From: Syntrophaceae bacterium
GTDB lineage: Bacteria > Desulfobacterota > Syntrophia > Syntrophales > Smithellaceae
Direction: 5' to 3'
Length of the DNA: 64,000 nt
Assembly (NCBI GenBank): GCA_003142535.1
Contig: PLMQ01000068.1
Span: 95,000 to 158,999, forward strand
Below, piece after piece: positions 3,657 through 37,444 of this stretch (position 1 is its first letter; every line of letters starts with the position of its first letter). The position numbers and the translations under genes are program-made. The notes below the pieces were generated by a model. It had not been told where the DNA came from and did not search any database. It worked only from the letters and a program-made list of their open reading frames with translations.

Positions 3657-3755
3657 TGCTTAATGTCCCGTATGGCTGGTCATTGGTTGTGCTTGAAAGT
3701 CCGTACGTTATGTGATAGTGCACTGCAACGAATAACATACCATACCGCCTTCATA

Positions 3756-3860: not shown

Positions 3861-3914
3861 GTAGAGTTGTATAAAATTTTACGCTAATAATTTAATATTT
3901 TACAGGAGCAACAA

Positions 3915-6704: not shown

Positions 6705-6723
6705 AATAGCTCTGGAGATTATT

Positions 6724-7215: not shown

Positions 7216-7264
7216 GATATATTTTCATTCGCCGGTTGAGGGAAATATACTGTTTGAGTAAAAT

Positions 7265-12580: not shown

Positions 12581-12603
12581 GAGAAAATGGAGGAATATAT
12601 ACC

Positions 12604-13290
12604 TTGACTAATTTTCGCATCAAAAAGGCGTTTGGCATTATTGGATCATTACTAATTGCGTTTTTTATTTTGCCCTCAGTCGTTCCGGCTGAAGATATGA
12701 TTACAAGTGGAGGAAAGCGTCCGGTGCGGATTGCTATAATTCCTTTTCAGTCTCTTTTGCCGGAAGAAGGTTCAGGTAACGCAGTTATTTCTCCTATCCA
12801 CGGAGCGGGTTATTCCGGTGGTAAAATAGATAAAGGAGCAAATGAGATTGTAGGAGAACTTTTTACGGAAAAGCTGAACGCATTTAAAGACGTGAAAATC
12901 ATGCCGTCGGAGAAAGTAAACGCTTTTTATGGGCGCATTAATGCTGAATCGCTAAAAAAACCTGTCATTGATGTTTTGAAAAAAACGGGCGCAGAACTGG
13001 GAGTGGATATTTTGGCAGTTGGTTATGTTTTTCGTTATATGGAAAGAATTGGTTACGATTATTCCGCAGAAAAACCGGCATCGGTCGGTTTTGAAATTAG
13101 TTTCATTAATGTCAAAAATGGTGAAGCAATTTGGCACGGTGTCTTTGACAAGACTCAGAAGTCGCTGATGGAAGATGTCTTCCAGATTTCGTCTTTTTAT
13201 AAGGGCGGTGGAAAATGGCTTACTGCACGCCAGTTGACGCAACAGGGCTTAGACGAAGTTCTTAAAACTTTTTCCGGATTCGACTTTTAA
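12604..13290 (+). CDS. Exported protein of unknown function embedded in the his cluster
   Basis: 228 aa with a TTG start and a GGAGG RBS. It has a signal peptide (no lipobox Cys). I recognise no family motif with confidence. Confidence 0.45.
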   Translation: MTNFRIKKAFGIIGSLLIAFFILPSVVPAEDMITSGGKRPVRIAIIPFQSLLPEEGSGNAVISPIHGAGYSGGKIDKGANEIVGELFTEKLNAFKDVKIMPSEKVNAFYGRINAESLKKPVIDVLKKTGAELGVDILAVGYVFRYMERIGYDYSAEKPASVGFEISFINVKNGEAIWHGVFDKTQKSLMEDVFQISSFYKGGGKWLTARQLTQQGLDEVLKTFSGFDF

Positions 13291-15010: not shown

Positions 15011-16774
15011 GTGCGTTTTGATGACAGCAAGATTGAGGAAATCAAAAGCAGGGTAGATATTGTCGAACTTGCTTCCGAGTTCCTGACTTTAAAAAAAGCA
15101 GGTAGAAATTATTTAGGGCTGTGCCCTTTTCATCAGGAGAAAACACCGTCATTTACGGTCAACCGCGAAAAGCAGATATTTTACTGTTTCGGTTGTGGCG
15201 AAGGTGGCAATGCCATTACCTTCCTGATGAAAATTGCCAATAAAACTTTTCCGGAAGCGATCAAGGATTTAGCGGAGAAAACGGGAGTTGTCTTACCGCC
15301 GCGGCTTACAAGTAAAGAAGGCCGTGAGAAAGATACCGTAAGAGAGAACATCTCCAATTTAAATTTAAGGGCGGCGCAACAGTATGCCCGTAATTTGTAT
15401 TCTCCTGTCGGCAAAGGTGCCCGGGATTATTTGCAAAACAGGGGAATAACTGAAGAAACAGTAAAACAATTCCGGCTGGGTTATGTGTCGGATACATGGC
15501 GCTCTTTGACAGATTACATTGAAAATAGTGGTACTTCCCTGAAACTGGCCGAGCAGGCAGGGCTGGTCATTGCCGGGAAAGAGGGCAGTTACTATGACCG
15601 CTTTCGCGGCCGGTTGATTTTTCCTATTGAGAATGTCTTTGGTGAAATTGTCGCCTTTGGCGGCAGAATTTTGGAAAAGGGTGAACCGAAATACCTGAAT
15701 TCTCCGGAATCACCCGTTTATATCAAGGGCAGGAACTTATACGGGTTGAATAAGACAAAAGAGGAAATCCGTAAAAAAGGTTTTGCTCTTATTGTTGAAG
15801 GTTATTTTGATTTAATTTCTCTGTGGAACGTGGGTATCGGTAATGCCGTCGCCACTCTGGGCACTGCGCTGACCAGAGATCACCTTGAGCTGTTGCGTCG
15901 ATACACGGTGGAAGTTGTCGCTCTTTTTGATCCGGATGAGGCAGGAAGAAAAGCCTTAGACCGCAGCCTGGAACTATTTTTGGGAATGAATATACGGGCA
16001 AAAGCGTTGGTTCTACCAGGAGGCTTCGATCCTGATGATTATGTAAAGAAATTCGGCAAGGATAGACTGGAAGAATTGATTTCCCACGCTCAACCGTTGA
16101 GTGATTATTATATCGAAAATGTTTTAGGTGGTGGCAAGACATTTGAAGAAAAGCGGGAGAAGGTTAAAACAGCGATAGAGTTCATAAATAAGATTAATGA
16201 CAAGAATGAAAAGGACCTATTTATAAAACGCATTGCGGAGAAAACAGGCATTAATCAAGAATTGTTGATTAAGGAGGTCTACAAGAAGGAAGTACATATA
16301 AAGCAGAAGAGTGCAGAACAAAAACAGAATCTAAAAATTCATATTGATCCTGTGGAAGTAAATTTAATCCGCCTTTTATTGGAATATCCGCAGAAAACGG
16401 TACAGGTGGAAAGTGAAAATATCTTGGATTATTTCCTCCAGCCGGAGTTAAAGGATTTAGGGGCGAAAATTATTGAAATATATAAGCTGTTGGGTTCTGT
16501 TGATATAGGTGTAATTCTTCCTACAGATGAAGATACACCTTTGCGCGAAAAAATATTCCAATTAATGATGGAAGCTCTGCCTGCCGATGATGTAATGGTT
16601 GATAAGATTTTTGCCGACAACATCCGGCAAATTCAGAAGAAGTGGTATAAGGATCAGCATCAACAGATTAAATTAAAGCTGGGCAAAGCCCAGGAAAACG
16701 GAAATGAGGAGTTGTTAAATAAGCTGCTGCAGGAAAAGAAAAATCTGATTAGTAAAGAACGAGAACTGCGGTAA
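15011..16774 (+). CDS. dnaG: DNA primase
   Basis: 587 aa with a GTG start. A CHC2 zinc finger is present (CPFHQEKTPSF...CFGCGEGG), plus a TOPRIM domain (VEGYFD, DPDEAG). Confidence 0.95.
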   Translation: MRFDDSKIEEIKSRVDIVELASEFLTLKKAGRNYLGLCPFHQEKTPSFTVNREKQIFYCFGCGEGGNAITFLMKIANKTFPEAIKDLAEKTGVVLPPRLTSKEGREKDTVRENISNLNLRAAQQYARNLYSPVGKGARDYLQNRGITEETVKQFRLGYVSDTWRSLTDYIENSGTSLKLAEQAGLVIAGKEGSYYDRFRGRLIFPIENVFGEIVAFGGRILEKGEPKYLNSPESPVYIKGRNLYGLNKTKEEIRKKGFALIVEGYFDLISLWNVGIGNAVATLGTALTRDHLELLRRYTVEVVALFDPDEAGRKALDRSLELFLGMNIRAKALVLPGGFDPDDYVKKFGKDRLEELISHAQPLSDYYIENVLGGGKTFEEKREKVKTAIEFINKINDKNEKDLFIKRIAEKTGINQELLIKEVYKKEVHIKQKSAEQKQNLKIHIDPVEVNLIRLLLEYPQKTVQVESENILDYFLQPELKDLGAKIIEIYKLLGSVDIGVILPTDEDTPLREKIFQLMMEALPADDVMVDKIFADNIRQIQKKWYKDQHQQIKLKLGKAQENGNEELLNKLLQEKKNLISKERELR

Positions 16775-16793
16775 AAACTATTGAAGAATCATT

Positions 16794-17034
16794 GGTATGA
16801 ATCCCAAAACGCGCTTTGGGATTCATACCCTCCGCTGCGCGGGATAATTCGACCAGCAAACTTCAGCGTACTTTGTTTCTGAAGTTTGGGTCTCATTACA
16901 ACTTATCAATTCCGACTTGTGACCTTTAGGTTATACGTTTCACTTTCGGAATTGGAGTTTCACGACCACCGCTTACGCGGGATTGTTCAACATACCAATT
17001 TCCCTACACTTCGTTATGGAAATTGGAGTTTCAC
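16794..17034 (-). repeat. Modular multi-hairpin repeat (family A), two tandem units, minus orientation
   Basis: The reverse complement reads GTGAAAC-TCCAATTTCC..GGAAATTGG-TAT-GTTGAACAATCCCGC..GCGG, then a full unit with hp1, GTTGTAATGAGAC-hp2, GTCGAATTATC and the GGGTATGAATCCCAAAGC...TTGGGATTCATACC hairpin. Confidence 0.85.
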
Positions 17035-17059
17035 GAATAAATTATTTGGGAGATACCAA

Positions 17060-18811
17060 ATGGCTAAAGAAATACAATCAGATGAATTTAAAAAGTTAAT
17101 TACACTGGGTGAAGAAAAGGGCTTTTTAACATACGATGATGTTAACGATATGTTACCGCCGGATGTTACTTCTTCCGACCAGATAGATGATATTATAATG
17201 CTTTTCGGAGAAAAGAATATTGATATCATAGATACGGAGCAGGGAGACAAGCTGGTCATGAAAAAGACGCCGGAAGATGTAGTCCCGGTGAAATTTCCGG
17301 AAGCTCTCGCACTTGTGCCCGGTGCAGGTAAAACGGGCGATCCAGTGAAGATGTACCTGCGGGAGATGGGCCTGGTATCACTTTTGAGCCGCGAAGGCGA
17401 AGTGGAAATAGCAAAAAAGATTGAAGAAGGCGCACGGGAAACAATGTCGGCAATTTTCCGGCTTTCGGTTTCCATTAATGAAGTACTCAATATCGGTGAA
17501 AAATTAATCACCGGCGAGATAAGGGTTAAATATGTTGTCGATAATGTTGAAGATGAAGAAGGTTTCGTTGAGGAAGATGAACACAAAATAAGAGTATTAA
17601 AGCTGATTGATAGAATCAAGCTGTTCGATGACAGGAACGAAGTATTGCGCGCGAAGCTCAAATCAAAAACAATGCGGCCCAAGCAACGCCTGTTATTAAC
17701 TGCCGAACTGGAAAAGAACACGAAGAATATCATTACCCTTTGCCGGAAAGTTCGTTTCAGCAAGAAGCAAATGCATCGTTTTGTTGCCCGATTGCGTTAC
17801 TATGCCGATGAAATTGAAAGAGGCGAAAGAGTAATCAACCAATATAAAAAGGAAACGGGATTGAATTTGGCTCAACTGGAAAAAGCCTGGGTGAAAATGA
17901 AAAAATCCAAACAGGATGAAAAGCGTGCGGCTAAAGAAGCGCGTGTTTCCATTGAAGTCTTAAAGAAAAGCCAGTCTGCCATTACCGAGGCGCAGAAAAG
18001 AATAAAGCATATTGCCCGCGAAGTGGGTATCCCTACGGCAATCTTAAAAACAATTGTTGATTCCATTGAAGAAGGTGAAAGCAAGGCTGAAACAGCCAAG
18101 AGAAAGTTGGTGGAAGCAAACTTGCGTCTGGTTGTAAGCATTGCCAAGAAATATACCAACCGTGGTTTACAGTTTCTGGATTTGATTCAGGAAGGCAATA
18201 TCGGTTTGATGAAGGCGGTGGATAAATTTGAATATCAACGCGGCTATAAATTTTCTACTTATGCCACCTGGTGGATCAGGCAAGCGATAACACGAGCTAT
18301 TGCCGATCAGGCGCGGACGATTAGAATACCTGTCCATATGATTGAGACCATCAATAAACTTATCCGTACTTCGCGCTATCTGGTGCAGGAATTGGGACGC
18401 GAACCGACTCCCGAAGAGATTGCCAATAAAATGGAATATCCGTTGGAAAAGGTTCGCAAGGTTTTAAAAATCGCGAAGGAACCTATTTCTCTGGAAACAC
18501 CGATTGGTGAGGAAGAGGACAGCCATCTAGGCGATTTTATCGAAGACAAAAAAATTATGTCTCCTTCGGAAGCTACGATCAGCATGGATCTGGCGGATCA
18601 AACAAGAAAAATTCTCTCTACACTGACGCCGCGGGAAGAAAAAGTATTACGTATGCGTTTTGGTATCAGCGACAGACTCAGCTCTATGGCCGAAGATGAA
18701 AGTGGCGCACAGATAAAATTAATGGAAGCGTTGTTGCAGGAGCCTGAAATAGTAGAGGTGCCGGAAGTGAAAAAGTCAAAAACGTCTTTCCGCAAACGGG
18801 CGGCAAAATAG
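17060..18811 (+). CDS. rpoD: Primary-type sigma-70 factor RpoD, with aberrant C-terminus (region 4.2 missing)
   Basis: I place the start at ATG 17060 ([13 protein letters not shown]). The upstream 58 codons of the ORF translate repeat family A. Region 2 ([27 protein letters not shown]), region 3 and region 4.1 ([15 protein letters not shown]) are present. The last 47 aa are unrelated to the sigma-70 4.2 helix-turn-helix. Confidence 0.85.
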
Positions 18812-18887: not shown

Positions 18888-18963
18888 GGGCCCATAGCTC
18901 AATTGGTAGAGCCACCGGCTCATAACCGGTAGGTCCCTGGTTCGATCCCAGGTGGGCCCACCA
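18888..18963 (+). tRNA. tRNA with CAU anticodon (elongator Met, or Ile2 if lysidine-modified)
   Basis: Manual cloverleaf. Acceptor stem GGGCCCA/TGGGCCC. D arm GCTCaattggtaGAGC. Anticodon arm ACCGG-CTCATAA-CCGGT. T arm CCTGGttcgatcCCAGG. Encoded CCA. It is not initiator-like: position 1-72 is paired and there is no GGG/CCC anticodon stem. Confidence 0.9.
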
Positions 18964-19317: not shown

Positions 19318-20037
19318 TTGAAAGAACAATTATTGTTGTTAATTGAACTTCAGGAGTGTGACTCACAGCTGGTGATGTTTGATAGTAAGAAAAAGTATTT
19401 GCCGCACAAGCTAGCCAGGTTGGATGAAAAATTTCACACATTTAAAGAAGAAACGGAACAGAACAAAATAAAATATGATGAGCTGAAGACACGTCACAGC
19501 GAAAGTGAAAACAAGATTAAGAAAATAAATGAGGGTATGGTAAAAACCAAAGAAAGGCTTCTGGAAGTAAAGAACAACAAGGAATATCAAGCCATGCTCA
19601 AAGAAATAGAAACCGCCGAGGCATCGCGCGGTGATGTGGAAACTGATATTATCAAAATATTGGATGAATTGGATAAGCTTTTTGTTTTTGTTAAAAAAGA
19701 TCAGGTGACTCTGGATGAATACAGGAAACAGTATCAGGAAGAAAAAAAGCTTATGGAAACTGAGTTAAACTCAATCGATACTGACTATACCAATTGGGAG
19801 CAAAAGAGGAATGATTTGATAAAGAAAGTTCCTGCAGATCTTTTGTCCCGGTATGAAAAAATAAGAAACAGAAATAACGGCGTTGGTGTTATTTCTGTTT
19901 GGAAGGCCGTTTGTAACGGCTGCCACATGAATATTCCACCGCAGCTTTACAATGAATTGCAGAAATCCGCAGAATTGCTTGCCTGTCCCAATTGCAACAG
20001 GATAATGTACTTCCAGAATATGGAAAAGCCAGTGTAG
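19318..20037 (+). CDS. Coiled-coil protein with C-terminal C4 zinc ribbon (COG1579/DUF164-like)
   Basis: 239 aa with a TTG start and an AAGGAG RBS. A long coiled coil is followed by CNGCHMNIPP...CPNCNRIMY. Confidence 0.75.
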   Translation: MKEQLLLLIELQECDSQLVMFDSKKKYLPHKLARLDEKFHTFKEETEQNKIKYDELKTRHSESENKIKKINEGMVKTKERLLEVKNNKEYQAMLKEIETAEASRGDVETDIIKILDELDKLFVFVKKDQVTLDEYRKQYQEEKKLMETELNSIDTDYTNWEQKRNDLIKKVPADLLSRYEKIRNRNNGVGVISVWKAVCNGCHMNIPPQLYNELQKSAELLACPNCNRIMYFQNMEKPV

Positions 20038-20042
20038 ATTTT

Positions 20043-20453
20043 ATGGAGAAACAAAATTATCGGCTCTATAGCGATGGTGCCTGCCGCGGTAATCCCGGTG
20101 AGGGTGGTGCCGGAGCAGTTATCACCGATGCCGAAGGGAATGCTGTTTGGGAGGGCAAAGAATATCTGGGACACTGCACCAACAATATTGCCGAATACAA
20201 AGCGCTGATATTGGGATTAAAGGGAGCGCTGCAGGAAGGCTATAAGAAGTTGTATGTTTACATGGATTCAGAGCTCCTCGCTAAACAAATCAATGGTTCT
20301 TACAAAGTAAAGAATGAAAATTTAAAAGTATTAATGCGGGAAGTCCGCAGTCTGCTTTCTTCTTTTGAATCAGTTCAAGTTAAGCACGTTCTGCGCTGCC
20401 ACAATGCCAGGGCTGATAAATTAGCCAACCTAGCGATTGATATAAATAATTAA
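20043..20453 (+). CDS. rnhA: Ribonuclease H (RNase HI family)
   Basis: I place the start at ATG 20043 (MEKQNYRLYSDGACRGNPGEGGAGAVI). The motifs TNNIAEYKALILGL and the C-terminal HNARADKLAN are present. Confidence 0.85.
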   Translation: MEKQNYRLYSDGACRGNPGEGGAGAVITDAEGNAVWEGKEYLGHCTNNIAEYKALILGLKGALQEGYKKLYVYMDSELLAKQINGSYKVKNENLKVLMREVRSLLSSFESVQVKHVLRCHNARADKLANLAIDINN

Positions 20454-20544: not shown

Positions 20545-20920
20545 TTGGAGAAGAGTAGATGATCGCCGGCGGAATTTGTCCGCTGGAGGAAAGTCCGGGC
20601 TCCACAGGGCAGGATGGTCGCTAACGGCGACCGGGGGTGATCCCAGGGAAAGTGCCACAGAAAAAATACCGCCCGGCTATTTGCCGGGTAAGGGTGAAAA
20701 GGCGAGGTAAGAGCTCACCGTTTTCCGGGTGACCGGAAAAGCATGGTAAACCCCATCCGGAGCAAGACCAAATAGGAGAATGTTTGAGGGCTGCCCGCCT
20801 GATGTTCTCGGGTAGAGTCGCTAGAGGCAACAGGCAACTGCTGTCCCAGATGAATGATCATCACCGCGCCGCGGGTAACCAAGACGCGGGACAGAACCCG
20901 GCTTACGCTCTTCTCCGTGC
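20545..20920 (+). ncRNA. rnpB: RNase P RNA, bacterial type A
   Basis: The universally conserved GAGGAAAGTCCGGGCTCCACAGGGCAGG and ACAGAACCCGGCTTA are present. P1 pairing joins GGAGAAGAG (5') to CTCTTCTCC (3'). The ORFs called here are spurious. Confidence 0.9.
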
Positions 20921-20933
20921 CTTAAATAAAAAA

Positions 20934-20966
20934 TTCCCCGCCGGAATAACCAGCAGGGGATTTTTT
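20934..20966 (+). terminator. Intrinsic terminator after rnpB
   Basis: Stem TTCCCCGC...GCAGGGGA followed by TTTTTT. Confidence 0.65.
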
Positions 20967-20985
20967 AATTTAATTGGATTTATTC

Positions 20986-21209
20986 GTGAAACTCCAATTC
21001 CGAAAGCGCACGCATAACCTAAAGGTTACAGGTCGGAATTGGTAAGTTGAACAATCCCGCAAAGCAGAAGGTAATGAGACTCAAACTTCAAAAGCGAAGC
21101 GAAAAGAAGTTTGTTAGTCGAATTATCTCGCATAAGTAGGGATATAATCTCTCGCAGCTTGATGCGGAATCGGTTTCCAAAGCTTGCTTTGGAATTGGCA
21201 TCCGTGATT
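20986..21209 (+). repeat. Modular multi-hairpin repeat (family A), rearranged module order
   Basis: hp1 is TCCAATTCCGA...TCGGAATTGG. It is followed by GTTGAACAATCCCGC, then GTAATGAGAC-hp2 (TCAAACTTCA...GAAGTTTG), GTCGAATTATC, and ends ...TTTCCAAAGCttgCTTTGGAATTGGCATCC-GTGATT. It abuts the ppsA stop. Confidence 0.8.
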
Positions 21210-23873: not shown

Positions 23874-23905
23874 ATAAAAAAAGGCCGAATTAAATTCGGC
23901 CTTTT
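23874..23905 (-). terminator. Intrinsic terminator after the Cache-protein gene
   Basis: A perfect 11-bp palindrome, AAGGCCGAATT a AATTCGGCCTT, is followed on the minus strand by a U-run. It starts 3 nt after the stop codon. Confidence 0.8.
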
Positions 23906-23907
23906 AG

Positions 23908-25230
23908 TTATTTATCATCATCTTCGTCGTCATCATCGAACGCGAGAGGTGATTGCGAGCCCTCCGGCACTTCCGATTGTATCGACCGGTTAATGCCGCG
24001 TACTAGCAGCCACATAATGAGGAAGAGTATAATCATGGAAGCAATCAGTATGAAGATAATTGTTGCCGTCCATGATTTAGCTTCCTTGTCAATACTTTTT
24101 GAGGCTTTAATGGCCGCCTCATTATATTTTTCTACGTCTATGCCCATTCCGACCCAGCCGAATCCGGCAGGAGCGGGGTAACTGGCAGCATAAAACTTGA
24201 TCGGAGCGTAAGCCACAAATATCGTATGGCCGCCGAACTTATAAGATTTAGTTCCGGCATTTCCCGCTGCAGCATCCTTTGCTATCAGGGGAAGATTGGT
24301 ATCGGTATAACCCATCATGTTGAAGTTAAGAACTTCTTCGCCGTTTTTCATCAGAGCTGAGGCAGTTTTTTCCGTTAGCGATTGCACAGGAATGCCTTCT
24401 TTAGTTAATCCCCCAATGTGAAAATCATTGGGATGAACTATGACAAAACCGCGGCTATCAATCATGTATGCATAATTGCCGGTGGAAGCATCGGCTTTTA
24501 GCACCTGGTCAGCCTGCGTAGGAATTACCTGATTGGTGTATTTAGCCAGATGCCGATAATCCAACGTCAGGACAATGATGCCGGCAAAACCCTCTTTGCC
24601 GAATACCGGGGTGGCGAAACGTACAACACCGGAAAAACTCTTTCCCTTTTCGAATTCCTGCTTGGTCACATACCACCCGGTAACCGGAGAAACGTAAACA
24701 TCGCCTTTATTAAGATCTTTAGTTTTAGCAAAATAAGTTTCCATCTTGTAAGCGGTGCTGGCGGAATTGCTGACATTTTTTAACTTATCTGCGGTCATCG
24801 TATGCCCATTGACAATTTTAATTGTTTCCCGGCCGGTTTTGTCGATAAGGGACATTTCCGTATAAACTGGGGCAGATGTCAGCCGGATTTTTTTACCATC
24901 CTTTATCCAGATGGTTTTATTGCTTTCTTTTAGAAATTGTTTATAAACGATGTCATTAGCAGGAAGAATGGTTGCGGTAAGAACATCCTTCTTTCTTTCA
25001 TTGAGAAAGTTGGCAACTTCTTCGGCTGTGTTAATGGCACGTATCTTAATTTCTTCCTGGGACTTTTGATCGAGCACATTCACAGCTCGCTCTTTTATGG
25101 TAACCCCCAGCTTAAACATGCCGTTGGCAATTAAAAACGCCATGAGTGATAAGGGGATTACGATAAGCAGGAAGAAGACACCTCCTACAGTAAAAAACTG
25201 CTTATCTTTTTTAGTTTCAGACATTACCAT
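23908..25230 (-). CDS. Membrane protein with periplasmic double-Cache-like domain and no output domain (acidic tail)
   Basis: 440 aa. One TM segment lies near the N-terminus and another near residue 390. The ~350-aa extracytoplasmic region is Cache-like (SPVTGWYV..., YAYMIDSRGFVIVHPN). The cytoplasmic tail is only ~35 aa and ends DDDDEDDDK. Confidence 0.65.
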   Translation of the reverse strand: MVMSETKKDKQFFTVGGVFFLLIVIPLSLMAFLIANGMFKLGVTIKERAVNVLDQKSQEEIKIRAINTAEEVANFLNERKKDVLTATILPANDIVYKQFLKESNKTIWIKDGKKIRLTSAPVYTEMSLIDKTGRETIKIVNGHTMTADKLKNVSNSASTAYKMETYFAKTKDLNKGDVYVSPVTGWYVTKQEFEKGKSFSGVVRFATPVFGKEGFAGIIVLTLDYRHLAKYTNQVIPTQADQVLKADASTGNYAYMIDSRGFVIVHPNDFHIGGLTKEGIPVQSLTEKTASALMKNGEEVLNFNMMGYTDTNLPLIAKDAAAGNAGTKSYKFGGHTIFVAYAPIKFYAASYPAPAGFGWVGMGIDVEKYNEAAIKASKSIDKEAKSWTATIIFILIASMIILFLIMWLLVRGINRSIQSEVPEGSQSPLAFDDDDEDDDK

Positions 25231-25273
25231 TCCCCCTAACCTTTGTTAATTTTGTAGTTAATTTATTTAATTA

Positions 25274-25648
25274 TTAACCCAAAAAATAACGCATGTAAGG
25301 GTTAGCATAAAGTAATACAAGAGAAACGACCAATGCATAAATAGCGATTGATTCAGCCATAGCCATACCGACCAGCATGGTCATCATGATTTTGCCTTGT
25401 ACACCGGGGTTTCTTCCTACAGCGGAGCATGCGCCGCTGGCGGCTGTTCCAATGCCTAACCCCGCACCAACTGCTCCCACTCCGATAGCAATACCTGCTG
25501 CCAGCATTGCGCCGACGGCAAAAATCGCCTTGGAATAAGACTCACCTGCCGGAATTGTTTCCGCAGCAAAAACGATGGGGCTCGCTAAGAGCATAACTAC
25601 TATTGCAGTAAATGCTGTTAAAATTCTTTTACCAAATTTGCGTGACAT
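25274..25648 (-). CDS. atpE: F-type ATP synthase subunit c-like protein with N-terminal signal-peptide-like extension
   Basis: 124 aa. The C-terminal ~75 aa form a typical c-subunit hairpin (GLGIGTAASGACSAVGRNPGVQGKIMMTMLVGMAMAESIAIYALVVSLVLLYANP) with the carboxylate Glu. The first ~30 aa look like a signal peptide (ASPIVFAAE). No other atp gene is adjacent. Confidence 0.8.
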   Translation of the reverse strand: MSRKFGKRILTAFTAIVVMLLASPIVFAAETIPAGESYSKAIFAVGAMLAAGIAIGVGAVGAGLGIGTAASGACSAVGRNPGVQGKIMMTMLVGMAMAESIAIYALVVSLVLLYANPYMRYFLG

Positions 25649-25759
25649 TTTTTTCTCCTTTCCTCTCTATAATTATAATAATTTAACGCCTCTCCACTAA
25701 CATAAATCAAATATCATGAAAAGAGGAATTATCTCCAAATTAAAACAGACTAAAAGTTG

Positions 25760-25775
25760 TGCAGGATATGTGCCA
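25760..25775 (-). promoter_or_regulatory. Sigma-54 (-24/-12) promoter for the atpE-like/Cache operon
   Basis: The minus strand reads TGGCACatatcCTGCA. This matches TGGCAC-N5-TTGCW with correct GG...GC spacing. It lies ~112 nt upstream of the ATG at 25648, and a sigma-54 activator gene is divergently adjacent. Confidence 0.6.
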
Positions 25776-26003
25776 GTGCCGAAGATGAAAAGCTTTCTTC
25801 CTAAAGTGTTAAAATATTTGCTTATTATTTTTTTGTGAAAATCAAATGAATTTCTTTTTGGTGATGAAATTTAAAGTTTTGTTAAATTATTTGAAATGGA
25901 ACATTAAAAAATACAGAATTTTAAGACATCCGATTATTACATAATTGCAGCGTGTTGGAATGGTCCGTAATTAATAATAATCTCAATTTTATATATATTT
26001 TGA

Positions 26004-26264
26004 TTGAAATTTTACTGTTTGACCGTTAGGATTGCCAATAGTAATATTTTAAAAAATGCAAAGGAATCATTAAGGCATAAATATATGCAGGAACTTTTGA
26101 CTGCTATTACTTACCCTGTAGTCTGGCTTATTTGTTCTCACGTTTTGAAAATTGAAAGCGGTTTGGCGAAACTGCTTATTTCGTTGACAGCAGCAATTTT
26201 AGTTTATGTCCTGATCGGAATAAAACGATCTGCGGATGAAAATAATAAGAAGGAAGAGAAATAA
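26004..26264 (+). CDS. Possible small membrane protein (weak call)
   Basis: 86-aa ORF in an AT-rich region. Two hydrophobic segments are visible in the MQELLTAITYPVVWLICS...LISLTAAILVYVLIG part. There is no clear RBS. Confidence 0.25.
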   Translation: MKFYCLTVRIANSNILKNAKESLRHKYMQELLTAITYPVVWLICSHVLKIESGLAKLLISLTAAILVYVLIGIKRSADENNKKEEK

Positions 26265-26359: not shown

Positions 26360-28933
26360 ATGAAAATACGCATTTGGTTGGCCAGCGCGACTGTAATTAT
26401 CTTAATTCTGCTGCTTGCCTTGACAGTTAATCATGCCCGGGAAAAGGATATGGTAGAGCTCTTCAGCCGACAGCAGCTTGCCCATGTCCAAAATACTGCA
26501 ACAAGAATGGCCGATATTTTCTTGCAGGTCGGGAAAAATGTTGCTTTATTTTCTCATTTTGATCCTCAGCTAAAAATACCTTCCGCAGAAATTGACAGTA
26601 ATTACAAAATATTTTCTTCCGGCTGGGAAAACACTCTTAATACAGTTGTCCTGTTTGATGCCGCAGGCAGGATAAAGCGCATTTATCCGCAGGATACCTT
26701 CCCCGCAATAAATTTGTCCGATCACTTTAAGGCTCTCCAGAAAAAACAACAACAGTATTTAGGTCTGGCTTTAACGGAACGATCACGGGCAGTCAACTTA
26801 AAACAAAAAACGGACTGGTATCTGGTGGTCGGCTGCCCTCTCCGGCGCCAAGACGGCAAATTTGCTGGAGCATGGATGGTTTCCTTCTCTCTGGCGGCAG
26901 TTGTGGATAAATATGAAAAGCAAACCAGAGATAATGAATTGGGAGATCTCTGGCTGATCGATGAAAAGCAACAGATAATTATTCATCCCGATTCAGCATT
27001 TATCGGGAAGAACATTAAAGACCTGTTGCGCAACGATAAGGAAGCGCAAATTGATTTTTCATCAGACAAAAGTGCTTACTTTGAAGCAGTAGTGCGCCAG
27101 AGTGATAAAAAGCAGCAGCGCAGTGTAGTTGCTTTTTCTCCGCTGCAGGCGGGAGATAAAAAATGGATTCTTTTTGTTGTTGCTCCGTACAGCCAGGTAA
27201 TTTCCCCTGTTCGTAAAACTTTTGTTTATACTCTTTTCAGCTCATTATTACTGATTTTGGTAGTTGTTATTGTCGGTATATCTTTTGCTTTTAAAGAAGG
27301 CAAAAACCTGCGCGTCAAGGAAGAGCAGAAAAGATTGAAAGAGCGGGAGGACTGGCAGGAAAAACTGCTGCGGGAAAAGAAAACCATCGACGGCATTATT
27401 GAAGGTTCGCCAATACCTTCGTTCGTTATCAATAGGGAGCATAAAGTTATCTTGTGGAATCGTGCTTGCGAGGAGCTGACCGGCTATCCCGCAAGCGAGA
27501 TGGTTAACACAGACAAGCATCATATACCTTTTTATTCGGTCAAGAGGCCGGTCATCGCCGATTTGATAGTTGATCGGGATTTAGAAGGGTTGAGTAAATA
27601 TTATGGCGCGAAGAAAGTAAAAAAATCAGAAAAAGTGCTCGGAGCTTATGAAGCCACCGATTATTTTGAGAACCTTGGCGGCTGCAGCCGGTATCTGTAT
27701 TTTTTAGCATCCCCTATATATGATGAAAGAGGGGAAATAATTGCGGCAATTGAAACGCTGCAGGATGTTTCGCGCGAGGAGGAGCTGGCCAGGAGCTTGC
27801 GCGAATACGCGGAAACACTGCAAAATGAATTGGCCCAGAATATTGAATTGCGGCGTGAAATTGAGGAGCTCTATAGCTATCTCCAAACCATAGTCAAGAG
27901 TCTACCGGATAAAATATATGAGCTGGATGGAAATGGCATTGTCAATTATATGAGCCGAGGCTTGAAGAAAGAAGGGGGTCGTTCTTCTCGTGAATTCAAA
28001 GGCAAATACTTTTTGGATTTTGTTGCTCCCGAAGACAAGGATTTTGTCTGGGCCAGATGGCAGGAAGCAAAAAAAGGTATTTATAAACCCTACGAAATAG
28101 AAGCCATAGCAAAGGACGGCAAAAGAGTAAATCTTCTGATTACAACATCCCCGGTAATCGGCACCGACCGCTATCTTGTGGTGCAGCGTGATATAACAGA
28201 ATTTAAAAATCTGGAAAAAAAGCTTTATGAAAGCCAGAAACTTGCTGCCTTGGGGCAGTTTTCGGCGGGTATTGCCCATGAGGTGCGCAATCCACTTTCT
28301 TCGATCAAGATGAGTTTACAGATACTGGGAAAGCGCATGAATCCTGCCGGTAATGATTTAAAGAGATTTAAAATTGCCGAGAAGGAAGTGGAACATCTCG
28401 AAGAGTTGGTCAATAATGTTTTAATATTCGCCAAACCGGTAGATCCGCAAAAGGTGCCGGTCGATTTGGCCAAGGTGCTGGAGCAGGCATTGGCTATGGC
28501 GGAAAAGGGAATTGCCGATAAACATATAGATGTGCAGACAAAGTACGAAGAGATTCCCATGATTGCAGCCGATCCGGCGATGCTCGTTGATACTTTTTTG
28601 AATATTATCCGTAATGCAGCAGAAGCGGTAGAAGATGGGGGCATTATTTTAATTTCTTTGCAATGCCCTGAGAGAAGTAATGAGGCTGTGGTTATCCGGA
28701 TTGAAGACAACGGTTGCGGCATTGACTCCGAAGACATGCCCCATTTATTTAATCCTTTCTTTACACGGAAAAAATATGGTACAGGATTGGGGCTTTCTCA
28801 GGTTAAGAAAATAATTGATCTCCATCAGGGGACTATTGACATTACGAGCGAGAAAGATAAGGGGACAACAGTTCTTGTCACGCTGCCGGTGGAGTCGGAA
28901 AAAGCGCGGCTGGCCGTGCCCTTGAACAAATAA
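26360..28933 (+). CDS. Sensor histidine kinase (periplasmic Cache-like domain, PAS domains, HisKA, HATPase_c)
   Basis: 857 aa. Two TM segments flank a ~270-aa periplasmic domain. The H-box reads FSAGIAHEVRNPL, the N-box NIIRNAAEA, and the G-boxes DNGCGI and GTGLGL. Confidence 0.9.
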   Translation: MKIRIWLASATVIILILLLALTVNHAREKDMVELFSRQQLAHVQNTATRMADIFLQVGKNVALFSHFDPQLKIPSAEIDSNYKIFSSGWENTLNTVVLFDAAGRIKRIYPQDTFPAINLSDHFKALQKKQQQYLGLALTERSRAVNLKQKTDWYLVVGCPLRRQDGKFAGAWMVSFSLAAVVDKYEKQTRDNELGDLWLIDEKQQIIIHPDSAFIGKNIKDLLRNDKEAQIDFSSDKSAYFEAVVRQSDKKQQRSVVAFSPLQAGDKKWILFVVAPYSQVISPVRKTFVYTLFSSLLLILVVVIVGISFAFKEGKNLRVKEEQKRLKEREDWQEKLLREKKTIDGIIEGSPIPSFVINREHKVILWNRACEELTGYPASEMVNTDKHHIPFYSVKRPVIADLIVDRDLEGLSKYYGAKKVKKSEKVLGAYEATDYFENLGGCSRYLYFLASPIYDERGEIIAAIETLQDVSREEELARSLREYAETLQNELAQNIELRREIEELYSYLQTIVKSLPDKIYELDGNGIVNYMSRGLKKEGGRSSREFKGKYFLDFVAPEDKDFVWARWQEAKKGIYKPYEIEAIAKDGKRVNLLITTSPVIGTDRYLVVQRDITEFKNLEKKLYESQKLAALGQFSAGIAHEVRNPLSSIKMSLQILGKRMNPAGNDLKRFKIAEKEVEHLEELVNNVLIFAKPVDPQKVPVDLAKVLEQALAMAEKGIADKHIDVQTKYEEIPMIAADPAMLVDTFLNIIRNAAEAVEDGGIILISLQCPERSNEAVVIRIEDNGCGIDSEDMPHLFNPFFTRKKYGTGLGLSQVKKIIDLHQGTIDITSEKDKGTTVLVTLPVESEKARLAVPLNK

Positions 28934-28944
28934 GGTAAGAGTGT

Positions 28945-30327
28945 ATGCCAAGTATTCTTGTTATTGATGATGACTCTTCTATCCGGGAAACGCTCGATTT
29001 GTATTTAACGGAAGAAGGCTACAAAGTAGAAACAGCCGCCAACGGGACAGAAGGTTTGAATAAGTATGTGCAGCATCCGGCGGATGTTGTGATTCTGGAT
29101 ATTCGCCTGCCGGATGTTGATGGTTTTGCCGTTCTGGAAGATCTCAAAGAGGAAAATGAAAACGTCAAAGTAATTATGATTACCGCTTATCATGACATGG
29201 AAACCACGATCACTGCCATGAAAGGTGGCGCTTTTGATTATATCCATAAGCCGGTCAATGTTGATGAACTGGATATGGCGATTAAAAAGGCACTCAAGTC
29301 TCTGGAGATGGAACAAAAGATCGAAGGCCTTTTGACGGAACCATCACGCAGTTTTCGGGTTGGTGATATTGTCGGCACCGGCAATGAAATGCGCGAAATT
29401 TTTAAAACCATTGGTATTGTTTCGCAAAGCAGAACAACCGTGCTTATTCAGGGTGAAAGTGGCACAGGAAAAGAACTGATTGCCAAGGTTATTCATCATA
29501 ATACATCACCGGACGAACCTTTTATTGCCGTCAACTGTTCGGCAATTGTCGAGACGTTATTGGAATCGGAATTATTCGGCCATGAAAAAGGATCATTTAC
29601 CGGCGCGATTGCCCGTAAACTGGGCAAATTTGAACTGGCGCGCTATGGCACAGTATTTCTCGATGAAATCAGTGAAATGTCCATCAACCTGCAGGCCAAG
29701 CTCCTGCGGGTTTTGCAGGAAATGGAATTCGAAAGGGTAGGCGGCAAAGATAAGGTCAAAGTTAGCGCACGAATTATGACGGCGACTAATAAAGATTTGA
29801 AGACTATGGTCAAAGAAGGAAGATTTCGTGACGATTTATATTACCGTTTGAATATTGTCGCCATCAACATTCCGCCATTACGTTCGCGTAAGCAGGATAT
29901 ACCGCATTTGATGAACTATTTGCTGGCGAAAATCAATCTTGATTTGCACAAGAAAGTCATCGGTGTTTCCGATGAGATGATGAAAATATTCATGAAATAT
30001 AATTGGCCGGGGAATGTGCGTGAGCTGGAAAATTTACTTGTCCGGGCTTGTGTTGTGGCTAAAGGACAGGTTTTAAGCAAAAGTGATTTTCCGGAACTGG
30101 GCGGAGAAGAAGCCCTCAAAACTCAATCCGAAATAATGGAAGATATTGCGAAACCTTCTTTGCCGGGCAAGCTTTTAACTCTGGATCAAGTGGAAGAGCG
30201 CTACATTATAAAAGTAATTCGGGAAACGGATAAAAACAAAGGGGAAGTTTGCGAAATTCTGGGAATTTCCCGCCCTACGTTTGAACGGAAGCTGGAGAAG
30301 TATGGGATTGTCTTTGAGCGGGAATAG
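28945..30327 (+). CDS. Sigma-54-dependent response regulator (NtrC family)
   Basis: 460 aa. It has a receiver domain (DD...D phospho-acceptor context VILDIRLPDVDG), an AAA+ domain with GESGTGKE and the GAFTGA-type loop (GSFTGA), and a C-terminal Fis-type HTH. Confidence 0.95.
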   Translation: MPSILVIDDDSSIRETLDLYLTEEGYKVETAANGTEGLNKYVQHPADVVILDIRLPDVDGFAVLEDLKEENENVKVIMITAYHDMETTITAMKGGAFDYIHKPVNVDELDMAIKKALKSLEMEQKIEGLLTEPSRSFRVGDIVGTGNEMREIFKTIGIVSQSRTTVLIQGESGTGKELIAKVIHHNTSPDEPFIAVNCSAIVETLLESELFGHEKGSFTGAIARKLGKFELARYGTVFLDEISEMSINLQAKLLRVLQEMEFERVGGKDKVKVSARIMTATNKDLKTMVKEGRFRDDLYYRLNIVAINIPPLRSRKQDIPHLMNYLLAKINLDLHKKVIGVSDEMMKIFMKYNWPGNVRELENLLVRACVVAKGQVLSKSDFPELGGEEALKTQSEIMEDIAKPSLPGKLLTLDQVEERYIIKVIRETDKNKGEVCEILGISRPTFERKLEKYGIVFERE

Positions 30328-32752: not shown

Positions 32753-32976
32753 TTTTTCCCATCTATATCTCAGAATTAAACATGCACCATATAAATCCTG
32801 AACGGCGGTCACAATATTATCTGATATATTCGAAAGTTAGCAAAAGAATAGAGACAAAATGGTCATCTGCCCTTGACATGGTTATTAAATTATGTTAGCC
32901 CACGCAGTCTAGTCTGACATTGAATCAGACAGTTTTTTACCAAAGTGTTTACATAGAATTAACGAGGTGTAATTCA

Positions 32977-35900
32977 GTGCTGAAAGATAACGAAAAAGTT
33001 GGTGCAGTAATGGTTGTTGGCTCGGGAATCGCCGGTATTCAGGCGTCCCTCGATCTGGCCAATTCCGGAATGAAAGTATATCTGGTGGAAAATGGAATCA
33101 GCATCGGCGGTGTCATGGCCCAGCTCGATAAAACTTTCCCGACAAACGACTGTTCCGCCTGTATATTATCCCCGAAACTGGTGGAAGTCGGACGCCATCC
33201 CAATGTTGAAATAATGACTCGCCGTACGGTGGAATCAGTCGAGGGCGAACCCGGTCGCTTTAAAATAAAAATGACTCGCGCCCCGCGTTTTGTTAATCTC
33301 GATAAATGTACCGGCTGCGGTGATTGCGCCAATGTCTGCCCGGTTTCTGTTCCTTCCGAATTCAACGGCAATTTAAGTGAGAGAAAAGCGATCTACCGCC
33401 ATTTCCCGCAGGCGATTCCCAGCGGTTTTGCCATCGATAAACTGGGAACTTCTCCCTGTAAAGCCGGTTGCCCCACGCACATCAGCGTGCAGGGCTATGT
33501 GGCTCTCATTGCCGCCGGTAAATATAAAGAAGCTCTGAAACTTATTAAAAAGGATAACCCGTTCCCGTCAGTTTGCGGACGTGTTTGTAATCATCCCTGC
33601 GAAGCAGCCTGCAAAAGAGGCGAGGTCGAGCAGCCGATTGACATCATGCACTTAAAGCAGTTTGTGGCTGATATGGATTTAAATGATGCAGAGAAATTTA
33701 TCCCGGAAATAAAAGAAAAGAAAAATAAGAAAGTGGCGATTATCGGCGCCGGCCCGGCCGGTCTTTCCGCCGCTTATTATCTGGCCATCGAAGGCTATGA
33801 TATTGAAGTATTTGAAGCACTGCCCGTTGCTGGTGGTTGGCTCACCGTCGGTATTCCCGAATATCGTCTGCCGAAAAACATCATCAACGCCGAAATCAAG
33901 ATTATTGAGGCATTGGGCGTTAAGATCAAATTGAACACCCGAGTCGGCAAAGATATTACGCTCGATCAACTCAAAAAGAATTATGACGCCGTATTCATCG
34001 GCTGCGGTTCACATATCAGCTCCAAACTGGACATTCCCGGCGAGGATTTGCAAGGCGTCATTCATGGTATTGATTATTTAAAGAAGGTAAATCTTGGCGA
34101 CAAAGTATTCCTGGGCAACCGTGTTGCCGTAGTCGGCGGCGGTAACGTCGCGATGGATGCAGTGCGCACGGCAGTCAGAACAGGCTCGAAGGAAGTTTTC
34201 ATTCTCTATCGCCGGACACGCGCCGAAATGCCTGCAGCTCCGGAAGAAATTGAAGAAGCGCTCGAAGAAGGAATCAAGATGGAATTTCTGGCGGCACCGG
34301 TGCGAATTATCGGTAAAGACGGCAAAGTCTCCGCCATCGAATGCCTCCGTATGGAATTAGGCGAGCCCGATGCCAGTGGCCGCCGTCGTCCTGTCCCCGT
34401 TAAAGGTTCCGAATTTAAAATCGCAGTTGACGCCATTGTTCCGGCTATCGGCCAGGCCAACGAGTTATCCTTTATCAGCAAAGAATCTGGTGTTGCCATT
34501 AATAAATGGAATAACATAGATACTGATGCGGTTACCTTTGCGACAAGCGTTCCCGGCATTTTCGCCGGCGGCGACGTAGTCACCGGCCCGGCAACGGCGG
34601 TTAAGGCTATTAATGCCGGTAAAGAAGCTGCAATTTCGATTGATCTTTATCTGAAAGGCGAGGATATCCAAGCTGGTCGCGCCCATGACTGGACCAAAGG
34701 ATTGGCAGATCAGGCCGACACCAAGAATGTCAAAAAAGTGAAGAGAATTCATTATCCTTTGATGGATTCCGAAGAAAGAAGAACAAACTTCAAAGAAGTT
34801 GGTCTGGGTTTCACCGAAGAGCAGGCGAAAGCCGAAGCCGCGCGCTGTCTTTCCTGCGGTATCTGTTCCGAATGTTATCAATGCGTTGATGCCTGTATTG
34901 CCAAAGCCATCGACCACAATATGACATTTGAAGAAGAAACAATTGAAGTCGGTGCCGTTATCGCTTCACCGGGTTTTGAAATATTCGACGCCCGGCTGCG
35001 CGGCGAATACGGTTACGGCATTTATAAAAATGTTGTCTCCAGTATTCAGTTTGAACGTATTCTGTCTGCTTCCGGTCCTTTCTTCGGCCATGTGCAGAGA
35101 ATTTCCGACGGCAAAGAGCCCAAGAAGATCGCTTTCATTCAGTGCGTCGGTTCCCGCGATACATCCTGCGATAACAGTTGGTGTTCATCGGTTTGCTGTA
35201 TGTATGCCACCAAGGAAGCGATTATCGGCAAGGAACACGCCAAAGGGTTGGAACCAACAATTTTCTACATGGACATTCGCGCGCACGGCAAGGATTTCGA
35301 CCGCTTTGTCAATCGCGCCAAAGATGAATACGGCATCCGTTATATCCGCTCGATGCCTTCGGCAATCAAGGAATTGCAGCAGAGCAATAATCTGCTCATG
35401 ACTTATGTTTCGCAGGACGGCAAATTAATCGAAGAAGAATTTGATATGGTTGTTCTTTCCGTGGGACTCACGCCGCCCAAAGATTCTAAAAAGATCTCCT
35501 CCAGTCTTGGCATTGAGCTTGAAGAACACGGCTTCTGCAAGACTTCTTTGGAAAACCCTGTGCAGACCTCGCGTCCCGGAGTTTTCGTCTGCGGAGCATT
35601 CGGCGGTCCCAAAGATATTCCCGAAACGGTTATGGAAGCCAGCGCTGCTGCCGCCTGCGCGGAAGGATTGTTGGCAGCCAAACGCGGCACGCTGACAATC
35701 GCCGAGGAAGTACCGGAGGAAAAAGATTTGCGTGGCCAGGCAGTACGCACCGGTGTTTTTGTCTGCCATTGCGGTATCAATATCGGCGGCGTTGTGAACG
35801 TTCCTTCCGTCAGAGATTATGCGGCAACCTTGCCGACAGTTGTTTACACTGCGGACAATCTTTTCACCTGCTCACAGGATACAGCCGTAAAAATGGGTGA

Positions 35901-37404: not shown

Positions 37405-37444
37405 GAAAAGCGGTGCGATGATCGCGTCGTGTGATGGAGCATGT

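Follow-up and report, generated by a model that had tools for sequence, protein, structure and literature searches.

A conserved Syntrophales gene module that joins an F-type c subunit, an output-less Cache protein and a predicted sigma-54 switch

Introduction

The number and nature of the c subunits in the rotor of an ATP synthase set its ion/ATP ratio. Smithella and Syntrophus are fatty-acid- and alkane-oxidising syntrophs that live on the smallest known free-energy increments, and syntrophs run the ATP synthase forwards as well as in reverse, in the latter case driving reverse electron transport. The present analysis deals with a stretch of 64,000 nucleotides (nt) from a Syntrophaceae bacterium of the Smithellaceae (GenBank assembly GCA_003142535.1, contig PLMQ01000068.1, positions 95,000 to 158,999 of the forward strand), the whole of which is referred to as the window. 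It contains a gene for a 124-residue F-type c subunit, called c1 here, which is followed by the gene of a membrane-anchored Cache protein with no output domain, while a sensor histidine kinase and an NtrC/AtoC-type response regulator are encoded divergently. Comparison with related genomes points to c1 as a signal-induced alternative rotor subunit with the Cache protein as its dedicated membrane partner. The regulatory side of this reading is well supported and the functional side is what sequence comparison suggests; the reading as a whole is given an even chance of being right.

According to a review, the ion/ATP ratio is genetically fixed per species and c-ring stoichiometry is set by the GxGxGxGxG motif (PMC7594442). 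Two described systems with more than one c subunit come closest to the present case. In Acetobacterium woodii, whose F1Fo ring has been solved (4BEM), the organism likewise has more than one c-subunit gene, and the isoforms are able to share a ring. However, its c genes are neighbours within the atp operon and are expressed jointly, one of them codes for a duplicated subunit with four helices that is V-type-like, and its ring is coupled to Na+. By contrast, c1 and the second paralog described below (c2) are two-helix proteins encoded at separate loci under different sigma factors, and both look H+-coupled. The closest functional precedent for an isoform switch is found in Podospora anserina, in which the c-subunit paralogs Atp9-5 and Atp9-7 differ in structure, are transcribed differentially and lead to a different ATP synthase yield (PMC4956034). 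Unlike c1 and c2, these subunits are mitochondrial and developmentally regulated, with no two-component system, sigma-54 or partner membrane protein.

A conserved, predicted sigma-54 promoter and an upstream dyad

Promoters of the sigma-54 class are silent without an activated enhancer-binding protein. In the 64-kb window the pattern TGGCAC-N5-YTGCW has a single match (0.14 expected by chance), situated upstream of c1. The matching element carries the GG (-24) and GC (-12) dinucleotides, exactly spaced, fits TGGCAC-N5-TTGCW, and ends 111 nt from the c1 ATG (25648). It had been proposed as a -24/-12 promoter of the 124-residue gene in a preliminary description of this DNA, which read the motif as TGGCAC-N5-CTGCA. 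Besides being unique in the window, it has an equivalent in every relative compared: TGGCAY-N5-NTGCA is the best sigma-54 match in all 83 orthologous upstream regions, at 83-159 nt 5' of the ATG. As a control, only 1.5% of shuffled 450-mers score as high as the orthologous element. Where intergenic DNA has diverged between pairs of genomes, the -24/-12 element and the ribosome-binding site (RBS) are the sole conserved blocks. The region 5' of the promoter is AT-rich.

An alignment of the upstream regions anchored on the sigma-54 element revealed a dyad of the form TTNAAYGTTTTRTT ... AACAAAACRTTAAA, each arm of which is unique in the 64-kb window. The core of the right arm, AAYRNRWYNTTNAW, is present at 71 of 82 loci versus 22 of 1640 shuffles (1.3%), and dyad symmetry of at least 11/13 is seen at 50 of 82 loci versus 43 of 410 shuffles; at some loci, L039 among them, the arms form a perfect 13/13 palindrome. 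The distance from the dyad to the -24 element is approximately 95-205 nt overall, being about 95-135 nt in the window and nearer 180-200 nt in Smithella-type loci. Judged by its conservation, the right arm is the probable binding site of the NtrC-type regulator. The upstream activating sequence had previously been sought in TGAAAT half-sites, but these are not conserved in the 80-locus alignment and were rejected as the enhancer in favour of the dyad. A guessed enhancer consensus, TTNAAY-N5-RTTNAA, finds no match in the window because the right arm there carries a T at the R position.

The transcript that is predicted from this promoter would have a leader of about 100 nt. A structured or riboswitch-like leader was considered and rejected, since RNAalifold returned zero consensus pairs for 16 diverse leaders. 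Within the interval between promoter and RBS, a block ATTTCCYCTTTYC ... GATTTATGTTA at 25700-25730 (minus strand) is moderately conserved, with no structure detected. The block may act as a translational enhancer, in the manner of the U-rich region of E. coli atpE, or contain a short upstream open reading frame (ORF), ATGATATTTGATTTATGTTAG. The strong terminator reported earlier behind the Cache gene was found again, as a 12-bp stem followed by a T-run.

The divergent kinase/regulator operon

The gene pair at 26360-30327, described before as a histidine kinase with a sigma-54 response regulator, has the corresponding domains, and the GSFTGA loop is found in the regulator. The latter matches PF00072 with 109 bits, PF00158 (Sigma54_activat) with 221 bits and PF02954 with 37 bits. 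Its phospho-acceptor motif, ILDIRLPD, is conserved in every regulator of the collection except that of locus L075. Orthology with AtoS/AtoC or NtrB/NtrC was rejected: kinase and regulator are not AtoC or NtrC orthologues, because their scores lie under the NCBIfam equivalog cut-offs (469.6 versus 714 for AtoC, 417.1 versus 558.6 for NtrC, 259.5 versus 646 for AtoS).

The divergent operon opens with a gene for a small, conserved membrane protein. As listed, its ORF begins with a TTG at 26004, upstream of the conserved Met. By tblastn it is found upstream of the kinase in nearly all loci (46-90% identity over residues 28-85); it was called as a 59-70-residue gene in L001 and L004 and has no Pfam match. 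By eye, the protein apparently has two hydrophobic segments. It may be an accessory protein of the kinase.

Conservation of the module and its variants

One genome per GTDB species was scanned; at least 180 have a close relative of c1, and the best 80 of these were fetched. Gene adjacency was counted only at loci with enough flanking DNA, i.e., 75 for the Cache gene and 60 for kinase and regulator. Homologues of c1 and of the Cache protein come from Smithella, Smithellaceae and Syntrophales metagenome-assembled genomes (MAGs). The two genes are co-conserved, the Cache gene lying directly 3' of c1 at 74 of 75 loci, and the divergent kinase and regulator are present at 55 and 56 of 60 loci, respectively. 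Gene order in these genomes thus shows a five-gene module, made up of the small ORF, kinase and regulator on one side and c1 and the Cache gene on the other, to be conserved in Syntrophales. That the two-component system controls the c1-Cache operon, as had been suggested from the window by itself, is strongly supported by these comparative data, namely the element at 83/83 loci, the dyad, and a kinase and regulator linked at 55-56 of 60 loci.

The variants of the module are informative as well. L038, L059, L062 and L079 retain both genes of the pair together with its sigma-54 element and enhancer, and the two-component system is not adjacent there. L075 (7585-8964, minus strand; 9456-9818, plus strand) keeps c1 and the regulator and has neither kinase nor Cache gene; it is the only locus without the kinase. 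Its regulator is also the sole case in which Asp54 has become Glu, with ILEINLPD in place of ILDIRLPD. In NtrC, D54E makes the protein constitutively active. The combination of kinase loss and D54E in L075 fits a switch controlled by phosphorylation, and on this comparison its regulator looks like a constitutively active form of that switch.

An AtpZ-like gene (PF09527, 31.3 bits, cut-off 26.6) and a gene for a 64-residue membrane protein accompany the module in about 38 of 80 loci. Both are absent from the window, in which they were not found. In L001 the two small membrane genes are at 12139-12333 (64 residues) and 12427-12669 (80 residues, AtpZ-like). The position of this gene pair varies: Smithella types have it downstream of the Cache gene, L041 types on the far side of the regulator.

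The c subunit c1 and its paralog c2

The 124-residue protein is an F-type c subunit, as the preliminary description had it. Residues 49-112 match PF00137 with 64.7 bits (cut-off 24) over the full length of the profile, and the hairpin has a GxGxGxG run in helix 1, a GRNPG loop and a helix-2 Glu in AMAESIAIY. It aligns to solved c-rings including the ion-binding Glu, with the A. woodii ring (4BEM) as top PDB match, and the hairpin is nearly invariant over 80 species. The orthologues are labelled 'ATP synthase F0 subunit C' by NCBI. Nevertheless, c1 falls below every NCBIfam equivalog cut-off (NF009998 is best with 76.4 versus 116; TIGR01260 gives 41.7 versus 43.95), and it is a divergent c-subunit subfamily. 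Assignment as an N-ATPase c subunit was rejected, as TIGR03322 scores 70.9 bits against a cut-off of 130.85 and N-ATPase genes are not adjacent; moreover, c1 does not have the Na+ signature.

Residues 1-28 of c1 are signal-peptide-like. By inspection, this extension fits the Sec-type pattern of a basic n-region, a hydrophobic h-region and an A-x-A-type site, the 'FA-AE' site being conserved in the consensus of the c1 family. It is therefore taken as a putative Sec-type signal peptide that looks cleavable. NCBIfam NF006295, a model for c subunits of 105 residues, aligns to residues 17-119 of c1 and thus to part of the extension.

The genes atpB, atpI and atpZ, searched for by tblastn with Smithellaceae queries, have no match in the 64-kb window, in line with the earlier remark that other atp genes are absent nearby, and they are not next to c1 in 79 of 80 loci, L067 being the sole exception. 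Dispersed atp genes with a lone atpE are normal in some phyla, so the absence of atp neighbours does not exclude F-type membership of c1. Two descriptions given before have to be qualified here. The signal-peptide-like N-terminus is indeed present, but it is not special to this gene, and the c-subunit gene is 'lone' in having no atp neighbours, but Syntrophales carry a second c-subunit gene, and the two are dispersed.

The second gene, c2, was found convergent to the Cache gene and about 0.4 kb beyond it in eight loci of the module (L020, L021, L023, L024, L026, L030, L031 and L041). L041 is a closed chromosome of 2.9 Mb, on which c2 lies at 12081-12464 (minus strand), its stop about 340 nt past the Cache stop. 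A search with c2 yielded a distinct family of 123-128 residues, including proteins from Smithella sp. and Smithellaceae MAGs. In MAGs named Smithella or Smithellaceae (L086-L093) it is a lone gene, 5-6 kb from atpZ-atpI-atpB; its neighbours in Smithellaceae are a gene for an AsnC-type regulator on one side and an RF-1-like gene on the other. The c2 promoter is a conserved near-consensus sigma-70 promoter, ATTCTTGACA-N17-TAGAAT or TAGATA (TTGACA-N17-TAGAAT type), and has no sigma-54 element. Just 5' of it, a 19-nt tandem repeat, ACCATGACAGGATAAGTTT, occurs in three copies in L086 (approximately 9750-9830) and in two copies in L087.

The paralogs form two discrete families, each internally conserved and with fixed differences between them. 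Their hairpins are 53-59% identical, with differences in the loop, in helix 2 (Table 1) and at several helix-1 positions. The extension of c2 is signal-peptide-like too, with a site that is typically xA|A (e.g., VFA|AP or AMA|AA), compared to FA|AE in c1. The Na+ signature of c-rings consists of a Gln in helix 1 and a Thr two residues after the Glu. Aligned with the Ilyobacter and A. woodii rings, both paralogs have neither of these residues, and from their alignment both look H+-coupled. This agrees with the report that the F-ATPase of Syntrophus is H+-specific (PMC2881411).

With c2 at hand, c1 is very probably not the only atpE. Such another copy had been raised as a matter to be checked, and the paralog is present in Syntrophales, where both genes are proven to be in the same genome for the L041 clade only. 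For Smithella, HOG91845.1 (c1) and HOG89796.1 (c2) are both 'Smithella sp.' third-party annotation (TPA) entries that lie 2049 accession numbers apart, which is suggestive only; protein look-ups for a Smithella assembly holding both genes gave only metagenome contigs from different samples. In the literature, nothing relevant on two atpE genes in Syntrophus or Smithella was found.

The output-less Cache protein and a distant relative of the pair

The Cache ORF begins 43 nt past the c1 stop. The second ATG is the likelier start, because homologues begin with MSETKK. The 440-residue product had been described as a periplasmic double-Cache protein with two transmembrane (TM) helices, an acidic tail and no output; domain search and structural model agree with this. 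Its architecture is TM1, a periplasmic double-Cache domain, TM2 and a short cytoplasmic tail. The match to Pfam dCache_1 is just under threshold (43.8 bits, cut-off 45), and many orthologues have PF02743 hits. The AlphaFold model (mean predicted local distance difference test, pLDDT, of 79.8, with the ectodomain mostly above 85) consists of a double-Cache domain, a stalk helix and two long flanking helices. In Foldseek, it matches the dCache domains of Mlp24, vpHK1S-Z8, PctA and TlpC with a probability of 1.00, the best PDB matches being the ligand-binding domains of the first three. After TM2, neither Pfam nor the model contains a detectable output domain in the approximately 30 residues that end in FDDDDEDDDK. 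The acidic tail is present in 74/74 Syntrophales Cache proteins as an aromatic residue followed by 6-9 Asp/Glu within the last 12 residues, [F/Y]-(D/E)6-9-K. TM1 is the most conserved segment of the protein, with 73% invariant columns versus 24% in the ectodomain. Such conservation is unusual for a receptor and suggests that TM1 makes specific contacts within the membrane.

An exhaustive profile search for relatives of the Cache protein returned only 454 representatives. The nearest longer ones (31-50% identity) are kinases, HAMP/GAF proteins and one chemoreceptor, and they share the whole TM-dCache-TM module with it; the outputs of the relatives are HAMP, PAS, GAF, HisKA or methyl-accepting chemotaxis protein (MCP) domains. 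The Cache protein is thus a sensor input module that has lost its transmitter or never had one. It was also considered as a recent duplicate or decoy of the sensor of the neighbouring kinase. This was rejected, since BLASTP aligns the two over 19 residues only (E = 0.037).

A second output-less Cache clade is represented by P0380 (NCBI MCD6281303.1, 'Deltaproteobacteria bacterium'), a protein of 434 residues with 38% identity, the same TM1 pattern and the acidic tail. Its gene is immediately preceded by one for a signal-peptide-bearing c subunit of 120 residues (MCD6281302.1). This distant pair has a sigma-70-like promoter, TTGCAT-N17-TATAAA; no TGGCA-N7-TGCA element was found, nor any two-component system within 13 kb. 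Because neither a sigma-54 site nor a two-component system is seen with the pair here, the pairing of c subunit and Cache protein is more fundamental than its regulation. Directly 3' of the distant pair are rnfABCDGE and nfn-like genes. Furthermore, the closest output-bearing relative, P0378, is a PAS/GAF histidine kinase of 1138 residues with 50% identity over the sensor, encoded in an Mrp/Mnh-type cation/proton antiporter cluster with Usp proteins (L109, 6424-19417). An ion-motive gene context was not seen around two more distant Cache relatives. There is, then, a hint of a general link between this dCache subfamily and ion-motive machinery, and the Mrp and Rnf neighbours hint that the signal may be ion or energy status.

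Proposed mechanism and alternative explanations

In the proposed scheme, the kinase would sense an extracytoplasmic and/or cytoplasmic cue and phosphorylate the regulator on Asp54. The regulator would then bind the dyad and activate sigma-54 RNA polymerase at the -24/-12 element, and a single transcript would carry c1 and the Cache gene and end at the terminator. In that case, c1 would be the inducible and c2 the constitutive isoform, because sigma-54 is strictly activator-dependent whereas c2 has a consensus sigma-70 promoter. As c1 keeps the GxGxGxG helix, the R-N-P loop onto which gamma and epsilon dock and the helix-2 Glu, it would most likely join the F1Fo c-ring, either alone or mixed with c2. 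Its presence there would alter a property of the rotor, which may be ring size (H+/ATP), the pKa of the carboxylate, or stability. The Cache protein would work together with c1 in the membrane, as an assembly helper or as a ligand-dependent regulator. A role as an ordinary signalling protein is improbable, since the pair persists without the two-component system and the sigma-54 promoter, and a partnership with c1 is argued for by the pair outlasting the two-component system, by the distant rnf-linked pair and by the conserved TM1. A bolder version, considered improbable, makes the Cache protein physically a subunit of a rotor or Fo sector that contains c1, its two TM helices packing in or against the c1 ring, as those of Voa1/Ac45 and ATP6AP2 do in V-ATPases, and c1 replacing c2 upon the signal. 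If true, the periplasmic face of an F-type ATP synthase would bear a ligand-binding domain, and syntrophs near the thermodynamic limit would shift H+/ATP or clutch the enzyme when they meet a chemical or ionic cue from outside.

Several observations weigh against c1 as a switched rotor isoform with a dedicated partner. The ion-binding residues of c1 and c2 show no obvious difference, and ring size is unreadable from sequence. c2 was not found within the 64-kb window, so that co-occurrence in the window's own genome rests on relatives, and the Smithella evidence for both genes in one genome is circumstantial. In L067, a MAG labelled Syntrophobacterales, atpZ-atpI-atpB (1470-2761) abut the regulator gene of the c1 module, which means that the proximity of c2 to atpB is no universal argument for c2 as the housekeeping copy. 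By simple identity, the c subunit of the distant pair is no closer to c1 than to c2. Lastly, L075 has c1 without the Cache gene, from which it follows that c1 does not strictly need the Cache protein. Cache and kinase were lost there together, which fits a signalling role for the former, weakens the case for its partnership with c1 and forms the main support for the explanation discussed next.

According to that explanation, the Cache protein would serve the neighbouring kinase as an accessory or feedback sensor, a third component of the kind that MgrB is for PhoQ and YycH/YycI are for WalK; c1 would be the sole real output, with no direct relation between Cache protein and c-ring. This is rather unlikely, but it accounts for several features: as a sensor input module the Cache protein is complete, and it is most closely related to kinases and chemoreceptors, it is predicted to be co-induced by the two-component system, and it is missing along with the kinase in the one locus with a D54E regulator. 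Against it, the promoter of the distant pair is sigma-70-like and the 13 kb of its context contain no two-component system, the pair is intact in four Syntrophales loci without an adjacent two-component system, the Cache protein is not a duplicate of the kinase sensor, and its linkage to c1 (74/75) is tighter than that to the kinase (55/60). The pair could also constitute a separate membrane device outside F1Fo, for instance a ligand-controlled ion conduit or a scaffold, for which the tight two-gene linkage without other atp genes, the strongly conserved TM1 and acidic tail, and a general ion-homeostasis link (the closest kinase relative in an Mrp-type cluster, the distant pair beside rnf) can be adduced. 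This is held to be quite unlikely: c1 keeps the R-N-P loop and a helix-2 face that is near-identical to that of c2, both needed for coupling to a, gamma and epsilon, many genomes have the AtpZ-like gene linked to the module, and L075 keeps c1 alone. To our knowledge, there is no precedent for a bacterial F-type c-ring functioning outside an ATPase.

Alternatively, the roles of the two paralogs might be reversed, with c1 as the main housekeeping c subunit under an unusual promoter and c2 as an accessory or specialised copy. The extreme conservation of c1 across species-level genomes (at least 180), the atpZ-atpI-atpB genes beside the module in L067 and the fact that a lone atpE amid dispersed atp genes is normal in some phyla would fit such an arrangement. 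It is nevertheless doubtful, as sigma-54 needs an activated enhancer-binding protein, so that a housekeeping gene would come to depend on a sensory kinase; besides, the near-consensus sigma-70 promoter of c2 is conserved across clades, and c2 is 5-6 kb from atpZ-atpI-atpB in Smithellaceae. Finally, motif and pairing might be coincidental, or c1 a decaying duplicate. A motif match in a single window does have a 14% chance expectation, but the comparative data refute this explanation and leave it a negligible probability, with the motif at a constant position in 83 of 83 loci, a c1 hairpin that is nearly invariant over 80 species and a conserved operon structure.

Features of the locus and neighbouring genes

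The features of the module and the coordinates of the distant pair are collected in Table 1; everything that the preliminary description had reported was found again at the positions it gave.

Table 1. Features of the c1-Cache locus in the window, residues that distinguish c1 from c2, and coordinates of the distant pair
Feature	Position	Strand	Basis or remark
Intrinsic terminator of the two-gene operon	23879-23905	minus	12-bp stem, 3-nt loop, T-run
Membrane dCache protein, ORF of 440 residues	23908-25230	minus	likely start is the second ATG, 25224
c1, F-type ATP synthase c-subunit paralog, 124 residues	25274-25648	minus	PF00137
c1 signal-peptide-like extension, residues 1-28	25565-25648	minus	MSRKFGKR / ILTAFTAIVVMLLASPIV / VFA|AE
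Predicted 5' untranslated leader, about 100 nt	25649-25748	minus	predicted transcription start
Shine-Dalgarno sequence GAAAGGAG	25655-25662	minus	strong RBS, invariant in 16 diverse loci
Sigma-54 -24/-12 element TGGCACatatcCTGCA / TGGCACATATCCTGCA, TGGCAC-N5-CTGCA	25760-25775	minus	pattern match and comparative conservation
Dyad right arm TTTAACAAAACTTTAAAT	25869-25886	minus	near-invariant columns in 80-region alignment
Dyad left arm TTTAATGTTCCATTT	25894-25908	minus	conserved block in 80-region alignment; degenerate in the window genome
Small membrane protein, about 59 residues from conserved Met	26085-26264	plus	first gene of divergent operon
Sensor histidine kinase	26360-28933	plus	TM, dCache, TM, two PAS regions, HisKA, HATPase
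NtrC/AtoC-type response regulator	28945-30327	plus	REC, sigma-54 AAA+ with GSFTGA loop, HTH_8
Loop			GRNPG in c1, GRNPE in c2
Helix 2			MAMAESIAIY in c1, LAMIESLAIY in c2
Distant pair, L104	718-1080, 1303-2607		
Distant pair, L106/L107	1235-1597, 1820-3124		rnf side 3231-8253

Elsewhere in the window, dnaG and rpoD, the latter encoding the housekeeping sigma-70, lie upstream at 15011-18811 (plus strand). They are followed by a tRNA at 18888-18960 (plus strand) and by overlapping ORFs for a CT398-like zinc-ribbon protein and an RNase H-like protein at 19318-20453. A bacterial RNase P RNA of class A (327.8 bits) was identified at 20547-20920 (plus strand), and several ORFs listed at 20621-21017 are spurious frames across this gene. 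The RNase P RNA is also found behind the module in L001. A few kb beyond the regulator, the window contains genes for an HdrA-like flavin/FeS oxidoreductase of 1494 residues (32920-37404, plus strand), an MvhD/FlpD protein (37418-37885, plus strand) and a ferredoxin-like protein (37919-38926, plus strand), which together are probably electron-bifurcation machinery. Genes similar to this cluster flank the module in L001 and L004 as well.

Significance and comparison with known systems

A genome with two c-subunit genes, one constitutive and one switched by a kinase and sigma-54, would be a testable case for rotor change on demand in bacteria, and the module suggests that energy-starved syntrophs may re-tool or regulate their ATP synthase in this way. 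The pairing of a rotor subunit with a Cache protein in two distant lineages could reveal a new mode of rotary-ATPase regulation or assembly. On the practical side, the locus offers a defined set of promoter, enhancer and regulator for expression studies in organisms that are central to methanogenic digesters.

At the level of regulation, the module resembles NtrB/NtrC and AtoS/AtoC, as it combines a sensor kinase and a REC-AAA+-HTH regulator with a -24/-12 promoter and, 100-200 bp upstream, a dyad enhancer; among NCBIfam models, AtoC matches the regulator best. It differs from these systems in that the predicted target is an ATP-synthase rotor subunit. Two surveys of sigma-54 regulons do not mention a c-subunit target. 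In the literature, no report was found of a bacterial c subunit under two-component or sigma-54 control, nor of a Cache-domain protein that is genetically coupled to a c subunit.

Concerning the c subunit itself, the atp genes of Aquifex aeolicus and Campylobacterota are scattered, and their c subunits bear an N-terminal signal peptide. The cleavable-looking extension and the lone atpE apart from other atp genes are thus shared with these bacteria. However, they have a single housekeeping c subunit, whereas here both paralogs are extended and one is predicted to be under sensory control. N-ATPase operons, too, give a genome a second F-type c subunit, but c1 has no Na+ signature and lies outside any atpDCQRBEFAG operon. 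Syntrophus aciditrophicus has been reported to carry an N-ATPase as well (PMC2881411).

For the Cache protein, two groups of accessory proteins offer a comparison. AtpI/UncI and AtpZ are products of accessory genes of atp operons that are involved in c-ring assembly or are Mg2+-related. Like the Cache protein, they are non-catalytic membrane proteins encoded beside c-subunit genes, but the latter is a large protein with a ligand-binding ectodomain and shows no sequence relationship to them. The TM helices of Voa1/Ac45 (ATP6AP1) and of ATP6AP2 sit inside the c-ring of the V-ATPase. The Cache protein has in common with them a large non-cytoplasmic domain, a short tail, conserved TM helices and a tie to a rotor ring, although there is no relation in sequence or fold, the ATPases are of V and F type, respectively, and the association of the Cache protein is deduced from gene linkage. 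They provide a model for a possible association of the Cache protein with c1. The preliminary description had called the pairing of a c-ring subunit with a Cache protein functionally unexplained, and indeed no described role of a Cache protein or ATP-synthase accessory protein accounts for it. Altogether, a c-subunit isoform and a sigma-54 switch are elements of kinds already known; to the preliminary description, the analysis adds the c2 paralog, the order-wide five-gene module and the distant c-subunit/Cache pair beside rnf.

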